From: Fibrobacteria bacterium
GTDB taxonomy: Bacteria > Fibrobacterota > Fibrobacteria > UBA11236
Reading direction: 5' to 3'
Assembly (NCBI GenBank): GCA_043732185.1
Contig: JAYTHY010000043.1
Coordinates: 1-13,675, forward strand
Length of the DNA: 13,675 bases
Shown here: one piece after another, positions 2,905 to 13,675 of the stretch
Layout of the letters: each line of letters starts with the position of its first letter
Position numbering within the stretch: the stretch's first letter is position 1
Program-made: the position numbers and the translations under genes
The notes under the pieces: model-generated
What the model saw: only the letters and a program-made list of their open reading frames with translations
The model's database searches: none
Told to the model about the DNA's origin: nothing

Positions 2905-3162
2905 ATGTACAGCCTGAACGAATCAAATAGTCCATCCTATCACACTAGCGGTCAGGTGGCGAAGGCTCTTCGAGTCTCCGTCTCTACCTTGAAGCGTTGG
3001 CTGGAAGAAAATCCCAGCCTCGCCGGATTCAGAACAAATGCCAGTGGCTGGCGTTTGTTCTCTCCGGCAGAGATCGATCTTTTACGCGAGCACCAGCGGC
3101 AGCGTAAAAAAGATGGCAAAACATTTAAGCCGTCTACCCTGAGGCCCGTCAACGATGAGTAA
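2905..3162 (+). CDS. Stand-alone MerR/excisionase-like winged HTH DNA-binding protein
   Basis: YHTSGQVAKALRVSVSTLKRW...RTNASGWRLFSPAEIDLL is a MerR-type HTH plus wing. Only 85 aa, with no effector domain. Strong SD AAGGAG; overlaps the next gene (ATGAGTAA). Confidence 0.85.
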   Translation: MYSLNESNSPSYHTSGQVAKALRVSVSTLKRWLEENPSLAGFRTNASGWRLFSPAEIDLLREHQRQRKKDGKTFKPSTLRPVNDE

Positions 3163-4390
3163 GATCGTGCCGTTCCTCCTAACCCTTGGACTCCTGGCCC
3201 ACATCGCCATGGCTGCCCAGTTACGTTCCCGGGCGCAAGGCGTTCCAGGAGTGCTGGCATCCAATACTGTGGGCTTGGGTGACATTTGGGTTACTGTGGG
3301 CGCGAGTTCCTATTTCCGCATTCAACCGGTTTCCAATCAACGATTGGCAAAGCTGGTGGATACGGTCTACCGCAACGATTTCCGCCTGCTGTACGGGTCA
3401 GGAAATAGGTTGCATAGGGACTTGCTCCTTGCTCCAAGTGTCGGTGCAACATTAGGATTGGCGAATTTCTTGCATTTGGAAGTCGAGGGAATACCCTGGG
3501 ACGGGGAAAAACTCGGCGCTTCCACTGCGCGATTAAAAGTAACGACTCCAGGAAATGACAACCTCCGAATTATCGGCATGGCTCTGATATTGAGTGCCAC
3601 GCTGTCTACGGAGGAAGACATTTATTCCAAAGCGGAATCGACGCCCGGCTTTGACCCTATGCTGTACTGGGGTGTAGTTGCGGATCTCGATTTAGTGAAG
3701 GTGGTCCACGCCTTGCCTATCAAGGCCTATTTCAATTACACCAACTTGGACGACTATCGGCTTGTCCACGCTTATACGCAGCACCAATTTCGTTTTGCCA
3801 TGGAATATATGGGAAATCGTAGGAATTGGTTTGTACGGGGTGGAGCGATGTTGTACAAACCCTTGCCTACGCAGTTCAATCCCAATCCTTCCGGTGGATT
3901 TCTTCCAACCATCTATGAGTTTGGAATGGGATACCGCGCAGCTATGGGGGATAGGCTCACCTTTACAGCTGATTTCACCATGGATCCCATTCATCCCATT
4001 TCCTTCTTCAATCGCGAAACGGGAAAACCACCAAAGTTGCAAATCGGGTTCGAAGCTCCACTGGTATTCAACGAAACCAGGACGGAAGCCATCCGAGCGC
4101 TCATATTCAACGAGGAGCAACGTAAGGCCTACCGAGAAAAAGTTGCGAAAAATGCCGCGCAGAAAAAGGGTCAACCGGATTCTGCTTCGACAGCCAGTTC
4201 TCTGGCTGCCTCTGGCTCAGCAGCGGCGGCCGCCGGTCTTAAAGTTGAGGAAATCGGTTTGGAAGAAAGAAAGGCAACACAGTCGAAAGATGTTTTCAAA
4301 GGCGTATTCGACGAATCGGAAGTGGAAGTCACGGAAAAGCGAAAGCAAATTCGGAATGAACTGAAACAAATTGAGGATTTATTGGAATGA
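3155..4390 (+). CDS. Secreted beta-strand-rich protein (putative outer-membrane barrel) with charged helical C-tail; paralog of 4387..5643
   Basis: Sec signal (MSKIVPFLLTLGLLAHIAMA). Amphipathic strands such as SVGATLGLANFLHLEVEG, YEFGMGYRA, LTFTADFT and LQIGFEAP. Ala/Ser linker and Glu/Lys-rich C-terminus. Confidence 0.75.
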   Translation: MSKIVPFLLTLGLLAHIAMAAQLRSRAQGVPGVLASNTVGLGDIWVTVGASSYFRIQPVSNQRLAKLVDTVYRNDFRLLYGSGNRLHRDLLLAPSVGATLGLANFLHLEVEGIPWDGEKLGASTARLKVTTPGNDNLRIIGMALILSATLSTEEDIYSKAESTPGFDPMLYWGVVADLDLVKVVHALPIKAYFNYTNLDDYRLVHAYTQHQFRFAMEYMGNRRNWFVRGGAMLYKPLPTQFNPNPSGGFLPTIYEFGMGYRAAMGDRLTFTADFTMDPIHPISFFNRETGKPPKLQIGFEAPLVFNETRTEAIRALIFNEEQRKAYREKVAKNAAQKKGQPDSASTASSLAASGSAAAAAGLKVEEIGLEERKATQSKDVFKGVFDESEVEVTEKRKQIRNELKQIEDLLE

Positions 4391-5643
4391 AACAGTTATC
4401 TAAAACCCTGTTCATCGGGGTAATGCTTTACCTGACACTTGCCCAGTCGATTCTGGCTCAGGCTCGGCGATCGCGTCAGGATGGATTGAGTACGACATCC
4501 TCCTCCTCAACTTCTGGGGCGGGAAATATGAATATAACCATGTACGGCAGGACGTTCCTTTGGGACAATGCTGCAGCGCAAAAAATCCCTCCGGTTCTGC
4601 CGCATATTGAATTGAATTATGGACTAACCGATTTCCTGGATCTGGTAGGTGGTATCAACGCCTTAACCTACGTGTTCTCACCTGGGTATTTGTATGCCCG
4701 GGCAAAACTTACGACTCCGAATAACAAATACATTCGATTGCTGGGTTTCAGCCAAACTTTGGAATTGAAAAAGACTTTACTGGATTATTTTCCATCCAAC
4801 GGATACCGAGTACAAAGAGAAGGATTTGGGCCGGAAGGATTCATACTCGGCAATTCCGATCGTGTGACCAGTTGGAAATTGCTGACCTCGGCAGACGTTG
4901 AACTTATTCGAATTTCCTCATACTTGCCTTTCAAGCTTTACGCAAACTTGGGATGGGAAGGGGAATTCTCCTCAGATGTCAATGACTACAATGCGAAATT
5001 GGTGAGAGAGAGCAAGGGAAAACTGAAGCTGCCGGGACAGGATTTATCCTTGGTGCCTATGTCATTGGGCTTGGAATTAAAAACATATACAACTGATTTC
5101 TTTACCGAATTCGAAGCGCAACCGTTCATGAGTCAAATTTCCAAAAAAATCCGAGCCAATATATTTGGCGAGAAAAATGGAAATTGGAAACGCTTCTATG
5201 TGGTTGGAAAGCCCTTTGACATGCATTTCATGGAAATGCCCATGTATGTGAATTCCGGAGCCAAGATGAAATACGCAAACGGACTTGAATTGCAAGGGGG
5301 GCTATCTTGGCTTCTCAGCAAAGACCGCGGGCCCAAGTTGGGTCCGTGCACTGTGGCAACCAACCCATGCCTGGAAGGCGCGTCAGACGGGTATTCGCCG
5401 TTTTATCCACAGTGGAAAGTTTTCTGGCTAGTGCGATATCCCTTCTGGTTTACCCAGCCCTCAAGTGAACTGTACCGATCGTTTCTGCTTAAACGCTATC
5501 AAGACAAACGAAAGAAAGTCGACCTGGACGCCACTTTGGGCGCGCCGGTAAACCAGTCCGAGGAATTGGACGCATCCGAAAGGAAGAAAAAGCTGGAACT
5601 GCGGAGAAAGGAGGCTGATGGCAAAACCGTCGACCTCAACTAG
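4387..5643 (+). CDS. Secreted beta-strand-rich protein (putative outer-membrane barrel) with charged C-tail; paralog of 3155..4390
   Basis: ATGA overlap with the upstream gene. Sec signal ending ILA-Q. Strands IELNYGLTDFLDLVGGI, MSLGLELK and LELQGGLSW. Shares motif blocks with the preceding ORF. Confidence 0.75.
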   Translation: MKQLSKTLFIGVMLYLTLAQSILAQARRSRQDGLSTTSSSSTSGAGNMNITMYGRTFLWDNAAAQKIPPVLPHIELNYGLTDFLDLVGGINALTYVFSPGYLYARAKLTTPNNKYIRLLGFSQTLELKKTLLDYFPSNGYRVQREGFGPEGFILGNSDRVTSWKLLTSADVELIRISSYLPFKLYANLGWEGEFSSDVNDYNAKLVRESKGKLKLPGQDLSLVPMSLGLELKTYTTDFFTEFEAQPFMSQISKKIRANIFGEKNGNWKRFYVVGKPFDMHFMEMPMYVNSGAKMKYANGLELQGGLSWLLSKDRGPKLGPCTVATNPCLEGASDGYSPFYPQWKVFWLVRYPFWFTQPSSELYRSFLLKRYQDKRKKVDLDATLGAPVNQSEELDASERKKKLELRRKEADGKTVDLN

Positions 5644-8600
5644 GGTCGGGATGCCGCTAGTGCGGCTTCTGATTCTGGTTTTATTATTCCTGCGTGCCCT
5701 TCTGGGTATTGCACCTGCTTTTGCTGCGGCTCCTGTCGCTTCTGGCTCGAGTCTTGGCTGGAATCGTGGCCTCACCTTTGGATCTATTGCACCCTCCAAT
5801 AAGGGTCTTTGGTCCCAAGCTGATGCCATGGTTAATCGTCTGCGTGAAGAACGTCGCAAATTAAACCTCATTCTTGAGGAATTAGAACGATTGCAGTATA
5901 TGGGGCAAGATTTCCGGGATCTCCAGCTTTATCCGACGCGGATTACCGGTTTGGGTCCCAAGGATGACATTAAACTAGACCGGATGATCGAAGGTCTGGA
6001 AAGAAACTTGGCCTTAACTCGGAAGCAGGTCCTGGAGCTTGAGAAGCCTCTCGAGGATGCGAATTTCATCGCTCGGGAAATGTTGGAAGAAAGTCCCAAC
6101 CAAGACATGATCGATCTGTTGCTTAAAGACAATGTGGAAAGAATCGGACGCTTGGTTAAGGTACAGAAAGAATTGAACAAGCGATGGGACGATGCCTTTG
6201 CCTTGCTGTCGGAATACAGCGACCGTATTGGGCTAGGCAAGTTGGTAAATCAGAATACGCTTATTGAAGATGAATTCTTTAAGGTGCTGATGACCAATGT
6301 TGGCCGAGCGTCGCAGCGGTTCTATGGGGAAATGAATGACTATAAGGACTCCCTGGCGGCGCGCAGTGAAAAATCGGATTGGGAGAAAATGGCAAGCCTG
6401 GATCTTGGCCGTATTAAGGGACGCATTACCTCCAAGAGCATTGAAATGGTTCAATCTGATTTGGAAAGATTGTCATTGCGCTTCCACGGACGGATTTCAA
6501 TTGGGCTCGTGAACTATTATTTGGGCGCCAGTTTCATGCAAGGTGAAAAGCCATTAAAGGCTGTGGAAGCATATGGCAAGGTTGCACATGAAAGCCGCAT
6601 GTATGGGCCTGCATGCTTGGGACTTCTCCAAGCCCTCTTCGAATCCCGTCAAGATGATTCGCTCATCGTTCGTTTCCATGCCTTTAGGGCTGCAGGCATT
6701 TTGGATGCCAAGTTATTGCCTCCAGCCCTCTATTTGGTTATTCAAAGCACCTATGCACTAGGCAAAGATTCCTTGTTGGAAACCGAAATGACCTCTACAA
6801 CGGCAAAGGATCGGTATCACTTCAAATCCCTATTCATCTATGCCAAATCGTTAGTGCGTCAAAAGCGCTATGCGGAGGCCCGTGGCGTGCTGGTAACCTT
6901 GGTGGCGGAATCGCAAATTGATAAGCAACTGCATAACCAGGCGGAAATTGCCCTGGCACATCTCAATTTTAAAGAAGCCCATTACGAGACTTCACTGAAG
7001 GGTTATCAAAACCTTCTCGACCAGCCTGGATTCCAAGCTGAGGCACTTTATGGCATGGTGTGGTCCAATATCAAGATGCAGGATTTGGATGCAGCAGAAT
7101 TCATTTTGAAAAAACTGATTTCGCAATATCCGGATAATCCTTGGGCTATCGAAGGATTTATGGTCTTGGTCCGGAAGGTGATGCTAAAAGCCAAAAATGA
7201 ATGGGCGTTCCGTGTTATGGTTGACCGGGAATCCGATCAACTGCAGGATTTCAGTAAAAAATTATTGGAACGCCAACAGAATAACCTCATTTCCGAAAGT
7301 CAGTTGAAATCGGTGCGCGCCAAATTGACGCAAGCCTCCGCCGCTTTAAGTCGACAGAAGCCACTGACCGCGGAACAAATCGCCCAGCTCTATCAACAAG
7401 GACTAGGGCTTTGTGACTTTGTTGATGAGCGTTACAAAACGGGCGAGTATTCCGAACAATCCTTCAATAGTGAAAGAGAAGCAGTGTTGACAAAACTGAA
7501 GGATCCGGCCCTTTCAAATCTGAAAGGTGTCGACTCCAGCGCGAGCGATACCACCGGATTCCGATTGGTTGTCAAAGAAAAGCTATTTGAAAGCCGTGCC
7601 CTTGCCTTGGATATTCACGTGATGCATAAAGCCTGGCTGGAAGAATTACTGAAGTATTCCCAGCGCAAGCTTCAGGATGAAATTTATGCTTTGCGATCGG
7701 ATAGTTCCAAGACCATTGTTCGGTCGGAAATGGTCAAACGTTCACATGTATTGGCAGACGATATTTCGGAGCGCTTGGCAGGTAAATCGGATGACATTCT
7801 GGGGCGTATCCGTGAGCTGAGTGAGGACCCCAACTCCCTTGGTATTATGGATTGGATGCTGTTCCAGAAGGGTTATTTGAATTACGGTCTCGAGGAGGAT
7901 GCACTAAAGAAACGTCTGGCATCATTCCAATGGATAGAGGCGCAGGCAGGTGTAGGCCGGGCTCCACAAGCGGAACCCACTCTCGAACCGGAGAGTTTTG
8001 AATTGCCCTGGAAGGATCTGATATCAAATTATCCGAACTCGCCTTACGTCCCTGCGGCTCTATACTATATGGGTTATTCACAAACCTTGCGGGGTGAAAC
8101 GGTTTCTGGTCTGCACTATTTTGAAGAGTTGGTACAGCGTTTCCCGCAGGCGTCATATGCACAGCAGGCATATATATTTATTGGGGAATATTATTTCAAC
8201 GAAAACAAACTGGAACAGGCTGCGGAAGCGTATGATAAGGTGCTTGACTTCGCGGATTCTAAATATTTTGAACAAGCTCTTTATAAGTTGGCTTGGACCA
8301 GATACAGGGCCAATGCCTACAAAACGGCCATCAGTTCTTTCACCTTCATATTGGAGGAATCCGGAAGAAACGCTAAAGGCAAGGTAAAATCCGTACTGAC
8401 CAGTGAGGCACTCCAATTTGCGGCTCTATCCATTGCAGAAAGCGATACAAGCGGTGATGGAGGTCTCAAACAAAGTAAAGCTTTCGCGGAAAAACTGGGT
8501 GATGCGTACTTGGGGGCTAAATTATTACATCGCATGGCGGTAATTTATAGACAGCAGGGTCGATTGGATCGGTCCAAACATGCGCTGGAAGCCTTGCTGG

Positions 8601-9127
8601 ATGGCTATCCCGATTATGATCGTATGCCGGAAGCCATTATGGAGCTAGGGCTCGCCTATGAAAAGGAACAGAATTATCAAAGAGCTGCTGAAGTTCGGGA
8701 AAAGATTTTCAGACTGTATTGTCGCAATGGCGAATGGTATAAGAAAATCAAGGCCAAGGAATCTAAAGAAATTGCGGACTCGGTTAGCCAGGCGGCCATC
8801 GAACTGGTGGCGCGTCATTACCTATACGAAGCCAAGCAATTGAAGGACGCGAATGGACCCGGAAAACAAACTCGTGAAACTTATTTCCGCAAGGCAATCT
8901 CAGCGTATGAGGCATTCTTGGCAATCTATCCCGAAAATCCAAATCGGGCCAAGTACAATTATCAGGAAGCGGATGCATACTACTCTTTGGAAGATTACTC
9001 TGCCGCAGTCAAGAAATATATTGAAGTTTCGGCCATCGGCGATAAGAAACTCAAAATGACAGCAGCGTACAATGCCATTGTGGCTGCGCAGGAAATGCTG
9101 AAGAAGGCTGAAGATGGCAAAAAGTAA
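5618..9127 (+). CDS. Large exported TPR protein; GltC-like region fused to a GltD(AgmU)-like N-terminal TPR array (alternative start ATG 5651)
   Basis: Signal peptide ending AFA-A and an N-terminal coiled coil. TPRs QAEIALAHLNF..AEALYGMVWS..LISQYPDNPWAIEG are GltC-like. YPNSPYVPAALYYMG..QAYIFIGEYYFN..EQALYKLAWTRY..TAAYNAIVA are GltD-like. Confidence 0.85.
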   Translation: MAKPSTSTRVGMPLVRLLILVLLFLRALLGIAPAFAAAPVASGSSLGWNRGLTFGSIAPSNKGLWSQADAMVNRLREERRKLNLILEELERLQYMGQDFRDLQLYPTRITGLGPKDDIKLDRMIEGLERNLALTRKQVLELEKPLEDANFIAREMLEESPNQDMIDLLLKDNVERIGRLVKVQKELNKRWDDAFALLSEYSDRIGLGKLVNQNTLIEDEFFKVLMTNVGRASQRFYGEMNDYKDSLAARSEKSDWEKMASLDLGRIKGRITSKSIEMVQSDLERLSLRFHGRISIGLVNYYLGASFMQGEKPLKAVEAYGKVAHESRMYGPACLGLLQALFESRQDDSLIVRFHAFRAAGILDAKLLPPALYLVIQSTYALGKDSLLETEMTSTTAKDRYHFKSLFIYAKSLVRQKRYAEARGVLVTLVAESQIDKQLHNQAEIALAHLNFKEAHYETSLKGYQNLLDQPGFQAEALYGMVWSNIKMQDLDAAEFILKKLISQYPDNPWAIEGFMVLVRKVMLKAKNEWAFRVMVDRESDQLQDFSKKLLERQQNNLISESQLKSVRAKLTQASAALSRQKPLTAEQIAQLYQQGLGLCDFVDERYKTGEYSEQSFNSEREAVLTKLKDPALSNLKGVDSSASDTTGFRLVVKEKLFESRALALDIHVMHKAWLEELLKYSQRKLQDEIYALRSDSSKTIVRSEMVKRSHVLADDISERLAGKSDDILGRIRELSEDPNSLGIMDWMLFQKGYLNYGLEEDALKKRLASFQWIEAQAGVGRAPQAEPTLEPESFELPWKDLISNYPNSPYVPAALYYMGYSQTLRGETVSGLHYFEELVQRFPQASYAQQAYIFIGEYYFNENKLEQAAEAYDKVLDFADSKYFEQALYKLAWTRYRANAYKTAISSFTFILEESGRNAKGKVKSVLTSEALQFAALSIAESDTSGDGGLKQSKAFAEKLGDAYLGAKLLHRMAVIYRQQGRLDRSKHALEALLDGYPDYDRMPEAIMELGLAYEKEQNYQRAAEVREKIFRLYCRNGEWYKKIKAKESKEIADSVSQAAIELVARHYLYEAKQLKDANGPGKQTRETYFRKAISAYEAFLAIYPENPNRAKYNYQEADAYYSLEDYSAAVKKYIEVSAIGDKKLKMTAAYNAIVAAQEMLKKAEDGKK

Positions 9128-12116
9128 GCACCGATTTTTACGGAGTGGAGCATTTTTGGCGGCATTGCTGCTGGTTCATTGTGCCGGCTTTAAGTCTTTG
9201 CATAAATCGTCGACACATGCGACAGGTGCGCCCTTACCGGAAATTGTTGCTGCTACCGCAAAAGGCGATACCGTGGTTTCGGTAGAATTAGATGTCCCTA
9301 AACCCGACTCTGCTCGAAAGCCACCTTCAGAGGCTTCTATCCTTTATCTGCAAAGCCTGGATAATTATCTGAGCTTGGATTCTAATGATGAAAAGATTCC
9401 GGAAATAATGCTTTGGAAAGGAAATCATTTATACAACCAGGGCGACTTTTCCAAAGCGCTGGTTATCTACGAAGCGATGCGGAAAAAGTTTCCACAAAAC
9501 ACTTTTTATGGTGAAGCGTCCCAGATGGCGGCGCAATCCTATGGTCAGCTCGGGAGGCTAAAGGACGCTGAAACTATTTATAGAACCATGCTGAAAGAAT
9601 CCGATGGTGCGGCAAAGGCAGAGGCAACGGAAAGACTGGCCCAATCCATTTATCTGCAGGCGGAAAAAAAAGAAAAGCATGGTGATTTGCAATCGGCTTC
9701 GGAAGCGTATGCGCGAGTTGCCAAGGAATTCCCGACTTCTGAATTTGCACCCGTGGCACTATTTAATTCCGGCGTAATGCAGGAAAAACAAAAAAAATGG
9801 AAGGAAGCCATTCACATTTATGAAGTGTTTTTTGACGCCTATTTTGAATCGAAGCTGCTTGCTAAGGTACTTTTTCGTGAGGCCAAATGCCGGGAATTGG
9901 ATGGGCAATGGGAATCGGCGGGTCAAAAATATTTGAACTTGGTACGCACCTATCCAGAAAGTCCGGATGCGGAGCCCTCGCTTTATAATGCTGGTTTCGC
10001 ATTTTTCAATGGCAAGCGTTCAGATTCGGCTGCGAAAGCGTTTGAATTGTATGCAAAAAAATATCCACAAAATGCCGAGGCTCCCAATCTCCTTTTCCGC
10101 GCGGTGGAATTATATGGAGAACAACAGAATTGGGAAAAAGTCGGTGAGCTACAAAGTCTCTTCACGCGACGATACGCATCGGATAAAAATCGCCTTATAC
10201 AGGCATTGTGTATGGGTGGAACGGCTGCGTTTCAACGAGGGCAACAGGAAGAAGCCGTACAACTCATGAAGCAGGCTGTAAATGAATTCTCCGGACTCAA
10301 AAACGCCGATGCCTCGGCTCGTTTTTACGCTGCCCAAGCCCAGCATACTTTAGGTGAAATCGCCAGTAAACGCATGCGGGCATTGGTCATCCGGGCATCA
10401 GCATACGAGTCAGATCTCAAGTCCAAAACCGCATTACTCAAAGCAGCTGTTGATGAGTTTATCAAGGTGCTCGATTACCGTATCGTGGACTGGTCTTTAC
10501 GAGCTGCCTTTTCGCTTGGTCAAGGATTTGAGGACTTTGGCACAGAAGTGTATTTGGGCGCGCGCAAACCGACCAAGGTTGTATCTGATCAATTGGATCA
10601 GGAAGAAGATGCCATGGCTTCACTTTCTGCGGCATATGCCAAGGCACAAAAGCAGTATATGCAAGTGCTGGCCATTGGTCGGAAGCAGGAGGTTAATAAC
10701 AAATGGGTTGGTGATGCGAGCCTGCATATGTTGAGTATGGCCAATGCGTATGAAGGGTTTCAAATCAAAGCCATGGCCTTGGTGGCCCAGGTAATTCGGG
10801 TGGATGCCGCTACCCCGGAAAAAGCCATTGCGGGAAAGCTGCAACAAATATCCCGGATTACGCCGTATCAAGAACAAGGCATGAAGTACTTCATTGCTTT
10901 TCTAGAAATCGCTCAAGAGTATGAGTTTGACCCCAAAACTCTCGATACTCTTGGAGGCAGAATACTAGAGAGCACACGTGATTTAGGGCGCCATTACTTG
11001 GCGGCTGCTGAACTGGCACGATCGGCTCCTTTTCCTTCCGGTTTTCAAGCGATGGAGCGATTCTATTATCAGGTAAAATTATTGCAGGAAGGCATTCCGA
11101 AACTTGAAGATAAAGCCATGGATAATTTTCAGACTGGTCTTGATTTCGCTTTCAAGTACAATCTGAATAAAAATTCCATGGTTGATTCATTGAAGCTTGA
11201 CCTGGGCAGGGCCCTTTTTATACAGGCTAAATGTCTCGATTTACTTTCCCAGGAAGCTCTGACCAATCCTCCCATTCCTCCGGAGGCTGGACCTGAACAA
11301 CGTAAAATTTATTCGGAAAAACTCGAAACTGCAGGATATCAGTTGCAGGACCAGGCCCTGGAACGCTATCGCAAATTAATCGAAAAAGTTATTTCCGGAT
11401 CGATATCCACCGAATGGGGTGAACTTGCCTTTGCCAGGTTATTCCAGATTGAACCTGACAAGTGGACACATAGCGCCGAGGCAGACACCACACTGGATAT
11501 TTTCACGAGTAAGGACTGGACGGTACTCCCCGAGTTACCCAAATCGGGATGGCCACCTGCCGATAGTTCTATTTGGAAGCGGTCTCGAAAAGGTGTAATG
11601 CCAAAGAAAAATTATCCAGAAGACGTGGCCGCGGTGGTTCGCTTTCTTTGGGCTGGAGATAAAGGGCAAGGTCCGAAGGTGGACTCCACTCTAAGCCCGT
11701 ACATTCCTTGGAAACAAGTTTGGGCGCAAATGGTTTTTAATGTTCCGGATAATGTTCAGGGGATGGAATTAAAAATCGTTGCCCCGCAAGAATGGTCGGC
11801 GCAAATTGATCAAACCATGGTTTTAAGCCAAAAGAATTTAACGGGCAGTTGGGAAAAAGGAATCAGTATGGATATATGGCCATTGCTTTCCAAGAAAATG
11901 TCTACAGGTCGGCATTACCTTAGGATCTCGGCCCAAAACCTTAAGGTAACGGAAGGCTTCGGGATATGGGCGAGACTGCGTATTCACTTTAAGTTTGATG
12001 GGGCAGGAGCCGTGTTTCCATGGAACCAGGGAAAGCCAACTCCAGAATATTTGAAATCGCTAAGGGAACAGGAAATTCCCATTCCAAACTTTTCATCTCA
12101 TGGCGCCAAAGGTTGA
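9114..12116 (+). CDS. Probable lipoprotein TPR protein; GltD(AgmU) C-terminal-half-like, with repeated terminal module and C-terminal beta-sandwich
   Basis: Basic N-terminus, hydrophobic core and Cys23 (LLLVHC). TPRs EFPTSEFAPVALFNSG, YPESPDAEPSLYNAG and YPQNAEAPNLLF. GltD-like AAQAQHTLGE..KVLDYRIVDWSLRAAFSLGQGFEDF and PPIPPEAGPEQRKIYSEKLE. Trp-rich beta domain after ~aa 790. Confidence 0.85.
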   Translation: MAKSKHRFLRSGAFLAALLLVHCAGFKSLHKSSTHATGAPLPEIVAATAKGDTVVSVELDVPKPDSARKPPSEASILYLQSLDNYLSLDSNDEKIPEIMLWKGNHLYNQGDFSKALVIYEAMRKKFPQNTFYGEASQMAAQSYGQLGRLKDAETIYRTMLKESDGAAKAEATERLAQSIYLQAEKKEKHGDLQSASEAYARVAKEFPTSEFAPVALFNSGVMQEKQKKWKEAIHIYEVFFDAYFESKLLAKVLFREAKCRELDGQWESAGQKYLNLVRTYPESPDAEPSLYNAGFAFFNGKRSDSAAKAFELYAKKYPQNAEAPNLLFRAVELYGEQQNWEKVGELQSLFTRRYASDKNRLIQALCMGGTAAFQRGQQEEAVQLMKQAVNEFSGLKNADASARFYAAQAQHTLGEIASKRMRALVIRASAYESDLKSKTALLKAAVDEFIKVLDYRIVDWSLRAAFSLGQGFEDFGTEVYLGARKPTKVVSDQLDQEEDAMASLSAAYAKAQKQYMQVLAIGRKQEVNNKWVGDASLHMLSMANAYEGFQIKAMALVAQVIRVDAATPEKAIAGKLQQISRITPYQEQGMKYFIAFLEIAQEYEFDPKTLDTLGGRILESTRDLGRHYLAAAELARSAPFPSGFQAMERFYYQVKLLQEGIPKLEDKAMDNFQTGLDFAFKYNLNKNSMVDSLKLDLGRALFIQAKCLDLLSQEALTNPPIPPEAGPEQRKIYSEKLETAGYQLQDQALERYRKLIEKVISGSISTEWGELAFARLFQIEPDKWTHSAEADTTLDIFTSKDWTVLPELPKSGWPPADSSIWKRSRKGVMPKKNYPEDVAAVVRFLWAGDKGQGPKVDSTLSPYIPWKQVWAQMVFNVPDNVQGMELKIVAPQEWSAQIDQTMVLSQKNLTGSWEKGISMDIWPLLSKKMSTGRHYLRISAQNLKVTEGFGIWARLRIHFKFDGAGAVFPWNQGKPTPEYLKSLREQEIPIPNFSSHGAKG

Positions 12117-12187
12117 AAAAATAGTGGAAAGATTGAACTAAAGGAAAATTTGAGTTTCTACGAAAAATACCGATAATCTGGAACAGA

Positions 12188-12568
12188 ATGAGTCTATTTG
12201 AAATGTGCAATCGCAGGGCAGTGTTGGCAGTATCCCTTCTTCTGACAGGTTTATACAGTAGTGGCTGGACTGCTGGAAAGGGTGCCATTGTAAAAAAGAG
12301 TGTAGTGGCCCAGCCGCCGGTGGCCAAGCAAACTGAAACCGTTCAGGCAGGTCCTGCATCAGAAACCAGTACTGTTTTTCAGGAATTGAATTTTAACAAA
12401 ACCTTAGTTATTGAAGGCAAGGTTGAAAAACCGCAGGTGCAATTTACTTTGTTAAAAGAGCCACCTCCGGAAAAACAAATCCGATTCGAAACCAGTTTTC
12501 TTCAGAATATTCTTAAGCTGGATCGCGAAAATACTTTCAAGGTGGGGGAGTCCTACGGTCGGGATTGA
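12188..12568 (+). CDS. Small secreted GltF/CglF-like protein (alternative start ATG 12203)
   Basis: Signal-like N-terminus and low-complexity linker, then LNFNKTLVIEGKVEKPQVQFTL...FETSFLQNILK, resembling the GltF-family IEG...KP....F...I core. It lies immediately after the GltD-like gene, similar to the gltD-E-F order. Confidence 0.7.
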   Translation: MSLFEMCNRRAVLAVSLLLTGLYSSGWTAGKGAIVKKSVVAQPPVAKQTETVQAGPASETSTVFQELNFNKTLVIEGKVEKPQVQFTLLKEPPPEKQIRFETSFLQNILKLDRENTFKVGESYGRD

Positions 12569-12611: not shown

Positions 12612-13675
12612 TTACTTGAAGGCAAGTATGCTGCGATTCCACATGTCTGGTGCTGCATAGCCTAATAAATTGACCGTTGTCGCGGCCAAGTTAGACAAGC
12701 CGAAATCCTTGCCATCGATTTGATACTTCCCAGTATTTACGTTGTCATAAAAAATGCATGGCACTGGATTCAAGGTGTGACTGGTCTTCGCCTTGACACG
12801 ACCATCTTTCGCGTATTGCGGCTTTCCAGTTTTCTTGTCCAATTCATACATCTCATCGGCATTCCCGTGGTCAGCGGTGATCAATGCCATGCCACCTAAA
12901 GCGTCAATAGCTGGGAGCAACCGGCCCAGACACAAATCCACGGCTTCAATGGACAGGATGGCGGCGCGGAGATTTCCGGTATGTCCTACCATGTCTCCAT
13001 TGGCATAGTTCAAGCGAGTCGATCGGTACTTGCCGGTCTTTAGTTGCTCGATTACGGCATCGGTGATTTCCGCCGCCTTCATCCATGGGCGTTCATCGAA
13101 GGAAACTCGATCAGAGGGAATTTCGATCCAGGTTTCCAGCTTATCGTCAAATTTTCCGCTACGGTTTCCATTCCAAAAGTAGGTTACATGTCCAAATTTT
13201 TGGGTTTCCGAACAGGCGAGTTGTGAGACACCGCTGGCGGACAAATATTCGCCCATTGTATTTTTAATCTCTGGCGGGCTTACTAAATAATGCGAGGGAA
13301 TATGCAGATCCCCATCGTATTCCAGCATGCCGGCATAGACGACCTTTGGTTTTCGAATTCGGTCAAAGTGCGGAAAGTCCTGGTCTTCAAAGGCTCTGGA
13401 AATTTCGATGGCTCGGTCGCCACGGAAGTTGAAAAAAATAACGCTGTCACCGTCCTCAATGGTCCCAACCGGTTGACCGTTTTTGGCTATTACAAAAGGC
13501 GGCAAATCCTGATCGATGACGCGACTTTTGGCACCCTCTGCTTCGCTGCGGTAGGTTTTTATGGCGGTTTCTGAATTTGCAAACTGACGACCCTGTCCCA
13601 GGACATGCGTGTGCCAACCCTTTTCCACCATGCCCCAGTCCGCCTGGTAGCGATCCATGGTTATTTTCATGCGAC
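12612..13675 (-). CDS. gpmI: 2,3-bisphosphoglycerate-independent phosphoglycerate mutase (5' end beyond the right edge)
   Basis: Hallmark motifs (R)MKITMDRY, FFNFRGDRA, SETQKFGHVTYFWNG, NYANGDMVGHTG, TADHGNAD and TSHTLNPVP. The frame stays open to the window edge, so ATG 13670 is internal. Confidence 0.97.
   Translation of the reverse strand, partial: RMKITMDRYQADWGMVEKGWHTHVLGQGRQFANSETAIKTYRSEAEGAKSRVIDQDLPPFVIAKNGQPVGTIEDGDSVIFFNFRGDRAIEISRAFEDQDFPHFDRIRKPKVVYAGMLEYDGDLHIPSHYLVSPPEIKNTMGEYLSASGVSQLACSETQKFGHVTYFWNGNRSGKFDDKLETWIEIPSDRVSFDERPWMKAAEITDAVIEQLKTGKYRSTRLNYANGDMVGHTGNLRAAILSIEAVDLCLGRLLPAIDALGGMALITADHGNADEMYELDKKTGKPQYAKDGRVKAKTSHTLNPVPCIFYDNVNTGKYQIDGKDFGLSNLAATTVNLLGYAAPDMWNRSILAFK

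Follow-up and report, generated by a model that had tools for sequence, protein, structure and literature searches.

In Myxococcus xanthus, the related envelope-spanning machines Agl-Glt and Agl-Nfs are associated with gliding and with the spore coat, respectively. According to the survey of Luciano et al. (2011, PMC3169522), a seven-gene core (gltC, gltD, gltE, gltG, aglR, aglQ and aglS) also occurs outside the myxobacteria, including in one Fibrobacteres genome, and what these Glt/Nfs core genes originally did outside the myxobacteria is treated as an open question (PMC3169522, PMC3858216). The outer-membrane proteins GltA and GltB are characterised as OmpA-like paralogues with a mutually stabilising effect (PMC4488436). 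The sequence analysed here, referred to as the window, is the entire contig C43 (JAYTHY010000043.1, 13,675 nucleotides) of a Fibrobacteria bacterium, whose genome assembly (GCA_043732185.1) comprises 4.46 Mb in 139 contigs and is 100% complete with 1.21% contamination. The window carries a six-gene operon. Its products probably make up one half, that at the outer membrane and in the periplasm, of a second envelope-spanning machine of the Agl-Glt/Nfs type ('system 2'), most plausibly engaged in the handling of surface polysaccharide. The genes of the operon are all located on the + strand:

2905-3162, + strand: HTH, MerR-type helix-turn-helix protein of 85 aa, first gene of the operon
3155-4390, + strand: B1, predicted outer-membrane beta-barrel protein of 411 aa
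4387-5643, + strand: B2, paralogue of B1, 418 aa
5618-9127, + strand: T1, exported tetratricopeptide repeat (TPR) protein of 1169 aa
9114-12116, + strand: T2, probable lipoprotein with TPR, 1000 aa
12188-12568, + strand: S, small exported protein of 126 aa, last gene of the operon

Across HTH-B1-B2-T1-T2, the genes overlap by 8, 4, 26 and 14 nt, the 26-nt overlap of B2 and T1 being uncertain because the start of each open reading frame (ORF) was set to the first in-frame start codon. Sixteen loci around S were fetched from the window's own family and order. The order of the six genes was identical in 12 of these, including one from a complete genome, and the remaining 4 were broken by contig ends; the arrangement is not due to chance. 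A first-pass annotation of this DNA had described six co-oriented genes with the same four overlaps, and its list of products (an HTH protein, two secreted beta-rich paralogues, two giant TPR proteins and a small protein with an IEG..KP motif) was borne out item by item. It had also stated that the locus lacks a motor, in agreement with which no MotA_ExbB or ExbD gene was detected on C43; the 11 MotA_ExbB and 8 ExbD matches of the genome are all located elsewhere.

T1 and T2 together evidently correspond to one GltD-type scaffold that is distributed over two separately exported proteins. For comparison, 80 Myxococcota loci were fetched with the full-length GltG-family protein P0211 (NF033760, E 1.9e-122). 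Their genes encode, in this order, GltC, a GltD-position protein of ~1200 aa, GltE, a small protein recognised by the CglF (= GltF) model, and GltG. Of the GltD-position proteins in these loci, 39 were matched by the T1 profile (best E 6.3e-28) and 40 by the T2 profile (best E 3.5e-30); the best match of either profile to a GltC protein had an E of 1.3e-5. Positions 728-1149 of the T1 profile aligned with residues 117-533 of Myxococcota GltD (full E down to 6.3e-28). A reciprocal GltD profile, built from 40 Myxococcota sequences, matched 6/6 T1 and 6/6 T2 sequences tested, with profile positions 211-582 corresponding to residues 801-1165 of the window's T1 (E 1.6e-18) and positions 631-990, 1067-1125 and 1112-1191 to residues 79-410, 434-493 and 716-793 of its T2 (E 5.2e-14). 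T1 ended at GltD profile position 578-586 in all six cases, T2 started at position 590-631 in four and at 747-748 in two, and the join lies at about position 585-590. Profiles of myxobacterial GltC and GltE gave no match to T1 or T2 at E ≤ 1, their only match being the barrel-TPR protein of C66, and the models NF033756 and NF033758 had no match in the window. When the C-terminal part of T1 was aligned using hhalign, GltD scored 233.7 (probability 99.8, E 5.4e-28), compared to 62.7 for GltC and 57.9 for GltE. The N-terminal part of T1 (~690 residues) displayed no preference (GltC 75.4, GltD 68.5, GltE 66.1).

T1 starts with a type I signal peptide without cysteine, followed by a family-specific, helical or coiled N-terminal part (residues ~1-680) with some TPR and by a stretch with homology to the N-terminal half of GltD (residues ~684-1165). 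T2 shares homology with the C-terminal half of GltD over residues ~67-612, which precede a helical region (~600-785). The signal peptide of T2 ends in a cysteine in 19/20 sequences, the remaining one having a later start, and T2 is a probable lipoprotein. The split of T1 and T2 appears to be old and clean, because the two are separate ORFs at 20/20 junctions and T2 carries a signal peptide of its own. One frameshifted gene was considered as an alternative and rejected, since separate ORFs were present in all 20 junction-covering loci and T2 had its own signal peptide and cysteine. Judging from this locus, GltD would be able to function in the form of two halves that are exported independently. 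Two loci of the sister family f2 (L037:10617-11681, L038:3271-4344), counted among the 12 with identical gene order, encode a T2 of only ~355 aa and retain the other five genes; this short T2 is devoid of the more C-terminal GltD-like stretches, of the helical region and of the beta-sandwich described below.

Within their own genome, T1 and T2 each have a single strong relative, which is the same unsplit TPR protein of 1185 aa, encoded on contig C66. Its residues 90-551 aligned with positions 684-1142 of the T1 profile (full E 3.8e-23) and its residues 564-1145 with positions 67-612 of the T2 profile (full E 6.9e-46). The genome encodes dozens of TPR proteins (the GltE model alone had 60 matches), among which the C66 protein is the only one to match T1 and T2 strongly. 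Searches against curated families were less specific: the Pfam matches of T1 and T2 were all of the TPR type (12 and 10 families, respectively), and in NCBIfam only the generic YbgF/CpoB, BamD and PorW models were matched, all below their cut-offs (TIGR02795 YbgF/CpoB: T1 83.7 bits, T2 78.2 bits, cut-off 90.1). At E ≤ 0.1, none of the proteins of the window was matched by a Glt-named NCBIfam model. As the Myxococcota proteins at the GltD position likewise matched these generic families and no GltD-named model, the silence of NCBIfam on Glt names says little.

The motor missing from the operon appears to lie on contig C23 of the same genome, beside genes for polysaccharide export. In 8/8 loci fetched from other families of the phylum, B1-B2-T1-T2 are followed in one gene string by genes for TolQ, TolR, TolR and a TonB-like protein (B2 was counted in two of these loci from an open frame in the B2 profile search rather than from the ORF listing). 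Genes of ~300 aa and ~720 aa follow the TonB-like gene in 7/8 of them; in L124, the former encodes a Poly_export/SLBB protein (Wza-type) and the latter a Wzz/GNVR/P-loop protein (Wzc-type). The TonB-like proteins of L122 and L124 had GltG as their best match (E 1.9e-32 and 7.5e-24, respectively). The corresponding genes of the window's genome are:

C23:35479-37225: motor genes (TolQ and two TolR)
C23:37215-38255: TonB-like protein (NF033768 AgmX/PglI tail, 71.1 bits, cut-off 40; NF033760 GltG, E 5.1e-15)

TolQ of C23 is 51-53% identical to TolQ of L122/L124, compared to 33% for the TolQ of C66, and the other C23 proteins share 39-47% (TolR, relative to L122/L124), 41% (Wza-type) and 36% (Wzc-type) identity with their counterparts. 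The TonB-like protein of C23 stays below the full GltG cut-off (650 bits), its match leaving the FHA N-terminal part of the model uncovered. Further genes on C23 encode Poly_export/SLBB and Wzz/GNVR/kinase proteins, a Wzx-type flippase, an initiating sugar transferase (Bac_transf) and five glycosyltransferases. With 330 aa as called (298 aa in L124), the Wza-like protein is a short one; it consists of Poly_export and SLBB domains alone, and the EpsY model NF041843 matched it at an E of 1.3e-17, short of the cut-off. In at least 32/49 barrel-positive genomes that do not belong to the window's order, a GltG-type TonB tail was found ~10 kb downstream of the barrel gene on the same contig and strand, and in at least 10 of the remaining 17 the barrel gene lies less than 10 kb from the contig end on that side. 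C23-type motor genes were detected in 0/16 loci from the window's own order. That C43 simply abuts the motor contig was considered and rejected, since a complete relative has the two halves ~350 kb apart and none of the 16 loci contains C23-type genes.

In 7/8 loci of the other families, a gene for a STAS protein separates the two TolR genes (L124:14254-14628; PF01740, E 1.8e-13), with matching ORFs of ~106-124 aa at this position in L122, L123, L125, L127, L128 and L129; the STAS gene is missing between the two TolR genes of C23. Elsewhere in the genome, C22:4491-6690, C74:11652-13779 and C138:31461-33651 each contain a long (~520-570 aa) MotA/ExbB-type gene together with a short one and an ExbD-type gene.

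The two halves of system 2 also go together across the phylum. B2 was detected in 58/151 genomes and 35/54 genera, with 0/56 genomes of family f5 among them, and a C23-type TolQ (E ≤ 1e-45) in 62/151 genomes. By descriptive count, this TolQ was present in 57/58 B2-positive versus 5/93 B2-negative genomes; four of the latter five gave weak matches (E 1e-46 to 1e-50) and the fifth genome is 68% complete. In genus g4, 1/5 genomes contains both halves and 4/5 contain neither. The positive genome is complete and carries the operon at ~3.10 Mb and TolQ at 3.46 Mb, i.e. ~350 kb apart, and such joint loss within one genus, despite the halves being unlinked, is still telling. The AgmX/PglI tail was rejected as a marker of the system, as it was found in 148/151 genomes, usually in several copies. 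The unsplit GltD-like protein of the C66 type was matched (E ≤ 1e-40) in 144/151 genomes, including all 56 of f5. Fibrobacterota accordingly possess a system 1 that is near-universal (144/151) and a system 2 that is patchy (58/151), the latter being that of the window. The system 1 genes are located as follows:

G000 C66:49125-66028 (L040:2125-19028): system 1 cluster in the window's genome

This cluster encodes an OmpA-like protein, a barrel-TPR fusion, the unsplit GltD-like protein, TolQ, two TolR and a GltG-like TonB protein. The latter matched GltG (NF033760, E 5.4e-21) and the AgmX/PglI tail (74.5 bits, cut-off 40), and the TPR part of the barrel-TPR protein (744 aa, with an N-terminal barrel-like domain) matched the myxobacterial GltC profile (E 1.4e-16). 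The C66 cluster looks like the core complex described by Luciano et al. (PMC3169522). The window's set is separate from it and paralogous; its GltD is split, and it has a barrel family and a motor type of its own. The C66 cluster is located immediately upstream of genes similar to mreB, mreC, mreD and that for penicillin-binding protein 2, as judged by eye from their translations. Several relatives of the C66 TonB protein (P0198-P0204 and P0208-P0209) are long and have extra von Willebrand A, VIT and other Pfam domains, which suggests fusions, and the precomputed domain lists of the two weakest-matching relatives contain no TonB_C domain.

The barrels of system 2 form a family of their own. 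B1 was predicted to comprise a signal peptide, a 12-strand barrel (residues ~44-304) and C-terminal helices (309-337 and 377-410), with a disordered linker between (AlphaFold2 model; predicted local distance difference test score (pLDDT) 73.9, predicted template modelling score 0.64). In this model, the C-terminal helices would have to be periplasmic. The top Foldseek match of B1 was FapF (5o67_C, E 8.9e-7, probability 1.00), and its matches to FapF structures ranged from E 8.9e-7 to 7e-6, with template modelling (TM) scores of 0.48-0.59 (normalised to FapF) and sequence identities of 8-11%. FapF is a 12-strand barrel with an N-terminal coiled coil, whereas the helices of B1 and B2 are C-terminal. 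A periplasmic helical extension is common to B1/B2 and FapF of Pseudomonas (PDB 5o67, 5o68); no Fap genes are found near the window's operon. When the PDB was searched by sequence with the B1 profile, the best match was CdvA (E 0.0056), covering the C-terminal helices alone. Neither B1 nor B2 had a Pfam match at E ≤ 0.01, and B1 had no NCBIfam match either. Among 8000 candidates scored, 77 homologues of B1 were obtained at E ≤ 0.001, the named ones being called 'hypothetical' or assigned to Fibrobacteres/Fibrobacterota metagenome-assembled genomes (MAGs), except for one 'opacity protein-like surface antigen'.

B2 has the same layout as B1 (signal peptide, barrel, charged C-terminal tail), and the two are paralogues of weak similarity (E 1.3e-5 in BLASTP, E 2.2e-6 to 3.9e-6 in profile comparison). 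With a wide B2 profile, HMMER returned 108 matches at E ≤ 0.001 from a full scan of 1.84 billion representative proteins, with relatives of B1 among the weaker ones; 10 of the 108 were looked up, and the four with names comprised three 'hypothetical protein' entries and one hypothetical protein of a Fibrobacterota MAG. As a lead only, the protein-language features of B2 were closest to those of Phenol_MetA_deg barrels (score 0.97). The B1 and B2 profiles had matches in 0/5 Glt-bearing Myxococcota genomes at E ≤ 10, in a comparison with whole genomes rather than with identified GltA/GltB sequences. B1 and B2 share pairing and position with GltA and GltB, no kinship being detected, and the extensions of GltA/GltB are N-terminal as described in PMC4488436 and PMC9946355, in contrast to the C-terminal ones of B1/B2. 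The FapF-like barrels would represent a new family that accompanies the split GltD.

A further distinctive feature is located at the C-terminus of T2. A model of residues 600-1000 (pLDDT 86.6) contained long helices followed by a beta-sandwich (~790-965). Foldseek matched this model with the domains by which GH2 glucuronidases and galactosidases bind sugar, with alpha-L-rhamnosidase (3w5n) and with CBM61 (E 9e-5 to 8e-4, probability ~1.00), the TM scores being low as a single domain was aligned. The sandwich thus seems to adopt a galactose-binding-like fold, which is compatible with sugar binding and is no proof of it.

In S, a signal peptide and a variable linker precede a strongly conserved domain of ~60 aa (residues ~62-120), which includes the invariant stretch IEGKVEKP; 32 columns were invariant in 16 sequences. 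At E ≤ 0.001, 133 of 156 candidates were homologues, all named ones being hypothetical proteins of Fibrobacteres/Fibrobacterota MAGs. S had no match in Pfam, NCBIfam or the PDB, and the best score in a protein-atlas search (0.86) was below the useful range. It was found in 22/41 related genomes (a tally that includes one unpublished genome, G011, which enters into no other result given here). In 7/8 loci of the other families, a small ORF lies at its position between T2 and TolQ; four of these gave a BLAST match to S, and all seven aligned with a shared core. In the Myxococcota loci, GltF has the same build and place as S. The GltF model NF033764 (= CglF) did not match S at E ≤ 0.1, and the S profile found no GltF in these loci. 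In hhalign, the domains of S and GltF aligned end to end, with a common pattern composed of a hydrophobic strand, G, two residues, K/R and P, and a later SF/HF...LK helix; full-length alignment gave a P of 0.015 with both signal peptides included. S is best regarded as a positional analogue of GltF, the likeness as such not being significant. GltF is predicted to add a strand to GltG. When residues 58-126 of S were modelled together with residues 225-346 of the C23 TonB-like protein, the score (0.01, compared to a mark of 0.32) spoke neither for nor against binding. S accompanies the split GltD as a small, very conserved protein.

Compared with Agl-Nfs of M. xanthus, system 2 has in common the large TPR scaffold of the GltD/NfsD type (with Myxococcota GltD-position proteins, rather than Nfs sequences, serving for the test), the GltG/NfsG-type TonB-like protein and a motor of one TolQ and two TolR, whose likeness to AglRQS lies in gene make-up rather than in a direct sequence comparison. 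Paired paralogous outer-membrane barrels stand first in the operon in both systems, the Nfs genes having the order nfsA-H. The link to Wza/Wzc-type proteins is functional in Myxococcus (as described in PMC3858216) and physical in the other families of Fibrobacterota. The window differs from Agl-Nfs in that its GltD is split, with a lectin-like domain added to the C-terminal half, and in that its barrels are FapF-like, predicted to have 12 strands and equipped with C-terminal tails. It contains no equivalent of GltC/NfsC or GltE/NfsE, its S protein is not demonstrably GltF/NfsF, and in this genome the two halves of the system are unlinked. The TonB-like proteins of system 2, which measure 337-356 aa at the two loci scanned, are short, and their match to GltG begins at the membrane helix, leaving out its cytoplasmic FHA part. 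As to Agl-Glt, a small exported protein follows the TPR genes in both systems, and the conserved lipobox cysteine of T2 has a counterpart in Cys1 of GltD, as mentioned in PMC11761067. CglB, GltC, GltE, GltH, GltI, GltJ and GltK were not found in the window, and the models NF033755 (CglE), NF033757 (CglB) and NF033759 (TraA) were unmatched anywhere in the genome at E ≤ 10. Since GltD, GltG and the motor are shared and no counterparts of GltA/GltB, GltC and GltE were found, system 2 is of the Glt/Nfs kind and yet neither of the two named systems. No description of a second Glt-like set in Fibrobacterota or of its fusion to Wza/Wzc genes was found in full-text searches of a limited set of papers, and an earlier mention is possible.

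In the machine envisaged here, the TolQ/TolR channel encoded on C23 would use the proton gradient to drive the TonB-like protein, by analogy with systems described in PMC5349195, PMC11761067 and PMC3858216. The TonB-like protein would reach the T1/T2 scaffold beneath the outer membrane (for GltG, wrapping around GltD is predicted), and the scaffold would couple to B1/B2, possibly via the C-terminal helices of the barrels and the helical N-terminal part of T1. The cargo would most likely be the polysaccharide of the adjoining Wzx/Wzy-Wza/Wzc pathway, with the beta-sandwich of T2 as a possible grip, and the polymer might be anchored, spread or moved on the cell surface, similar to the Exo spore-coat polymer handled by Agl-Nfs. 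Spreading or anchoring of a polymer, opening of an exit channel and movement of an adhesin cannot be told apart from the sequence.

Several points weigh against this interpretation. The link to polysaccharide consists of gene neighbourhood, co-occurrence and one modest fold match (Foldseek E about 1e-4), and the co-occurrence counts, being descriptive, overstate the evidence because related genomes are not independent. The genome encodes 11 MotA/ExbB-type proteins, so that another motor, including that of C66, could serve the operon. The profile searches revealed no kinship of B1 and B2 with GltA/GltB, and the strand count of B1 could be off given its middling pLDDT (73.9). Equivalents of GltC, GltE, GltH, GltK and CglB are absent from the window. 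Finally, the domain-only score of S against GltF was reached by 127/300 column shuffles with the narrow S family and by 12/200 shuffles after this family had been widened by 12 distant members. The first-pass annotation, which had placed the locus among Glt/Nfs-related systems, was right in this respect, T1 and T2 having an affinity for GltD beyond the generic TPR level (E 1.6e-18 and 5.2e-14; hhalign 233.7 versus 57.9-62.7). Its assignments within the locus fared differently. The two TPR proteins, taken as GltC and GltD, proved to be two halves of one GltD, with no equivalent of GltC or GltE; the barrels, taken as GltB-A-like, had profiles that matched none of the five Glt-bearing Myxococcota genomes, B1 having 12 predicted strands; and the identification of the small protein as GltF was not upheld by the shuffles. 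There is also no need to call the operon 'rearranged', as the Myxococcota loci run GltC-GltD-GltE-GltF-GltG.

An unlikely alternative, which overlaps with the proposed machine and differs mainly in the use of force, regards the operon as the outer-membrane exit of a polysaccharide, with B1/B2 as the channel, T1/T2 as its scaffold and TolQ/TolR/TonB energising or gating secretion, in the manner of AlgK/AlgE, BcsC, PgaA or the composite EpsY/EpsX translocon. A TPR protein combined with a barrel is the usual layout of synthase-type exporters, and FapF, the closest solved fold to B1, is a polymer secretion channel. The Wza-like protein of C23 is short, has periplasmic domains alone and counts EpsY among its matches; this is the kind of exporter that needs, and is paired with, a beta-barrel partner in the account of Schwabe et al. 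(2022, PMC9601211). The barrels of composite translocons are, however, AlgE-like with 16-18 strands (18 for the EpsX type) according to the same source, compared to 12 predicted for B1, whose companions are moreover a scaffold of the GltD type and a TolQR/TonB motor. T1/T2 are specifically GltD-like, and the make-up of the motor, with one TolQ, two TolR and a GltG-type protein, is that of Agl-Glt/Nfs.

These same parts (GltD-type scaffold, GltG-type TonB protein, AglRQS-like motor make-up) drive gliding in Myxococcus, as described in PMC3169522 and PMC11761067, and would also fit a strict Agl-Glt motility or adhesion machine that moves an adhesin or the barrels and for which the polysaccharide genes supply slime only. 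This explanation is improbable: CglB (NF033757) lacks a match in the genome at the threshold given above, GltC, GltE, GltH, GltK, GltI and GltJ have no equivalent in the window, the gene string continues into Wza/Wzc in 7/8 loci, and core genes alone are unlikely to drive motility in the judgement of Luciano et al. (PMC3169522). It is least credible, to the point of being very improbable, that the operon serves envelope maintenance (Tol-Pal/CpoB/BamD-like) and is unrelated to Glt, its likeness to GltD reflecting shared TPR and its link to C23 a coincidence. The best curated families for T1/T2 are indeed YbgF/CpoB (just under the cut-off) and BamD, with no Glt-named model among them. T1 and T2 are, however, collinear end to end with the halves of GltD, with the GltC/GltE controls staying at the generic TPR level, and the GltD-like protein of C66 is their only strong match among the dozens of TPR proteins in the genome. 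The fusion to the motor genes in 8/8 loci and the co-occurrence in 57/58 genomes are hard to put down to chance. With 1169 and 1000 aa, respectively, T1 and T2 also differ from YbgF/CpoB of Tol-Pal, whose model TIGR02795 they match under its cut-off, and no tolB or pal gene is found in the window.

If the operon does encode half of a polysaccharide-handling Glt/Nfs-type machine, Fibrobacterota may conceivably, although this is somewhat doubtful, keep a living example of the presumed ancestor of the gliding and spore-coat systems: a proton-driven Glt-type conveyor in one operon with a Wzx/Wzy-Wza/Wzc capsule pathway, with a lectin-like grip for the exported glycan on a split GltD scaffold and barrels of its own, which in the window's lineage has been cut into two halves that are kept or lost together. 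An opinion article by Agrebi et al. (2015, Nat Rev Microbiol 13:318) is said to have proposed that capsule assembly is tied to gliding. A Glt-type set physically fused to Wza/Wzc genes in a distant phylum would provide a concrete system for testing this tie. For annotation, the assignments made here explain five genes that recur across the phylum as 'hypothetical' or generic 'TPR' genes.

The first gene product of the operon matched PF13411 MerR_1 (E 3.1e-8, 34 bits, cut-off 21.6), and a homologue stands at the head of the operon in 12/16 own-order loci and in 7/8 loci of the other families; this HTH protein is probably the regulator of the operon. A scan for promoters and terminators yielded counts at or below the shuffled expectation. 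In one of the reference loci, from Polyangiales, a group II intron reverse transcriptase/maturase fragment (TIGR04416, E 5e-55; L045:12423-13235) follows directly after gltG. Upstream of the operon in the window, two divergent genes (1384-2496 and 1-1002, both on the - strand) had no Pfam or NCBIfam match. A 370-aa upstream protein was matched beside the operon in 12/16 own-order loci and in none of the 8 loci of the other families. Downstream of the operon, a convergent phosphoglycerate mutase gene (PF01676, E 5.1e-52) is located at 12612-13670, and a convergent mutase gene likewise follows S in 12/16 own-order loci.

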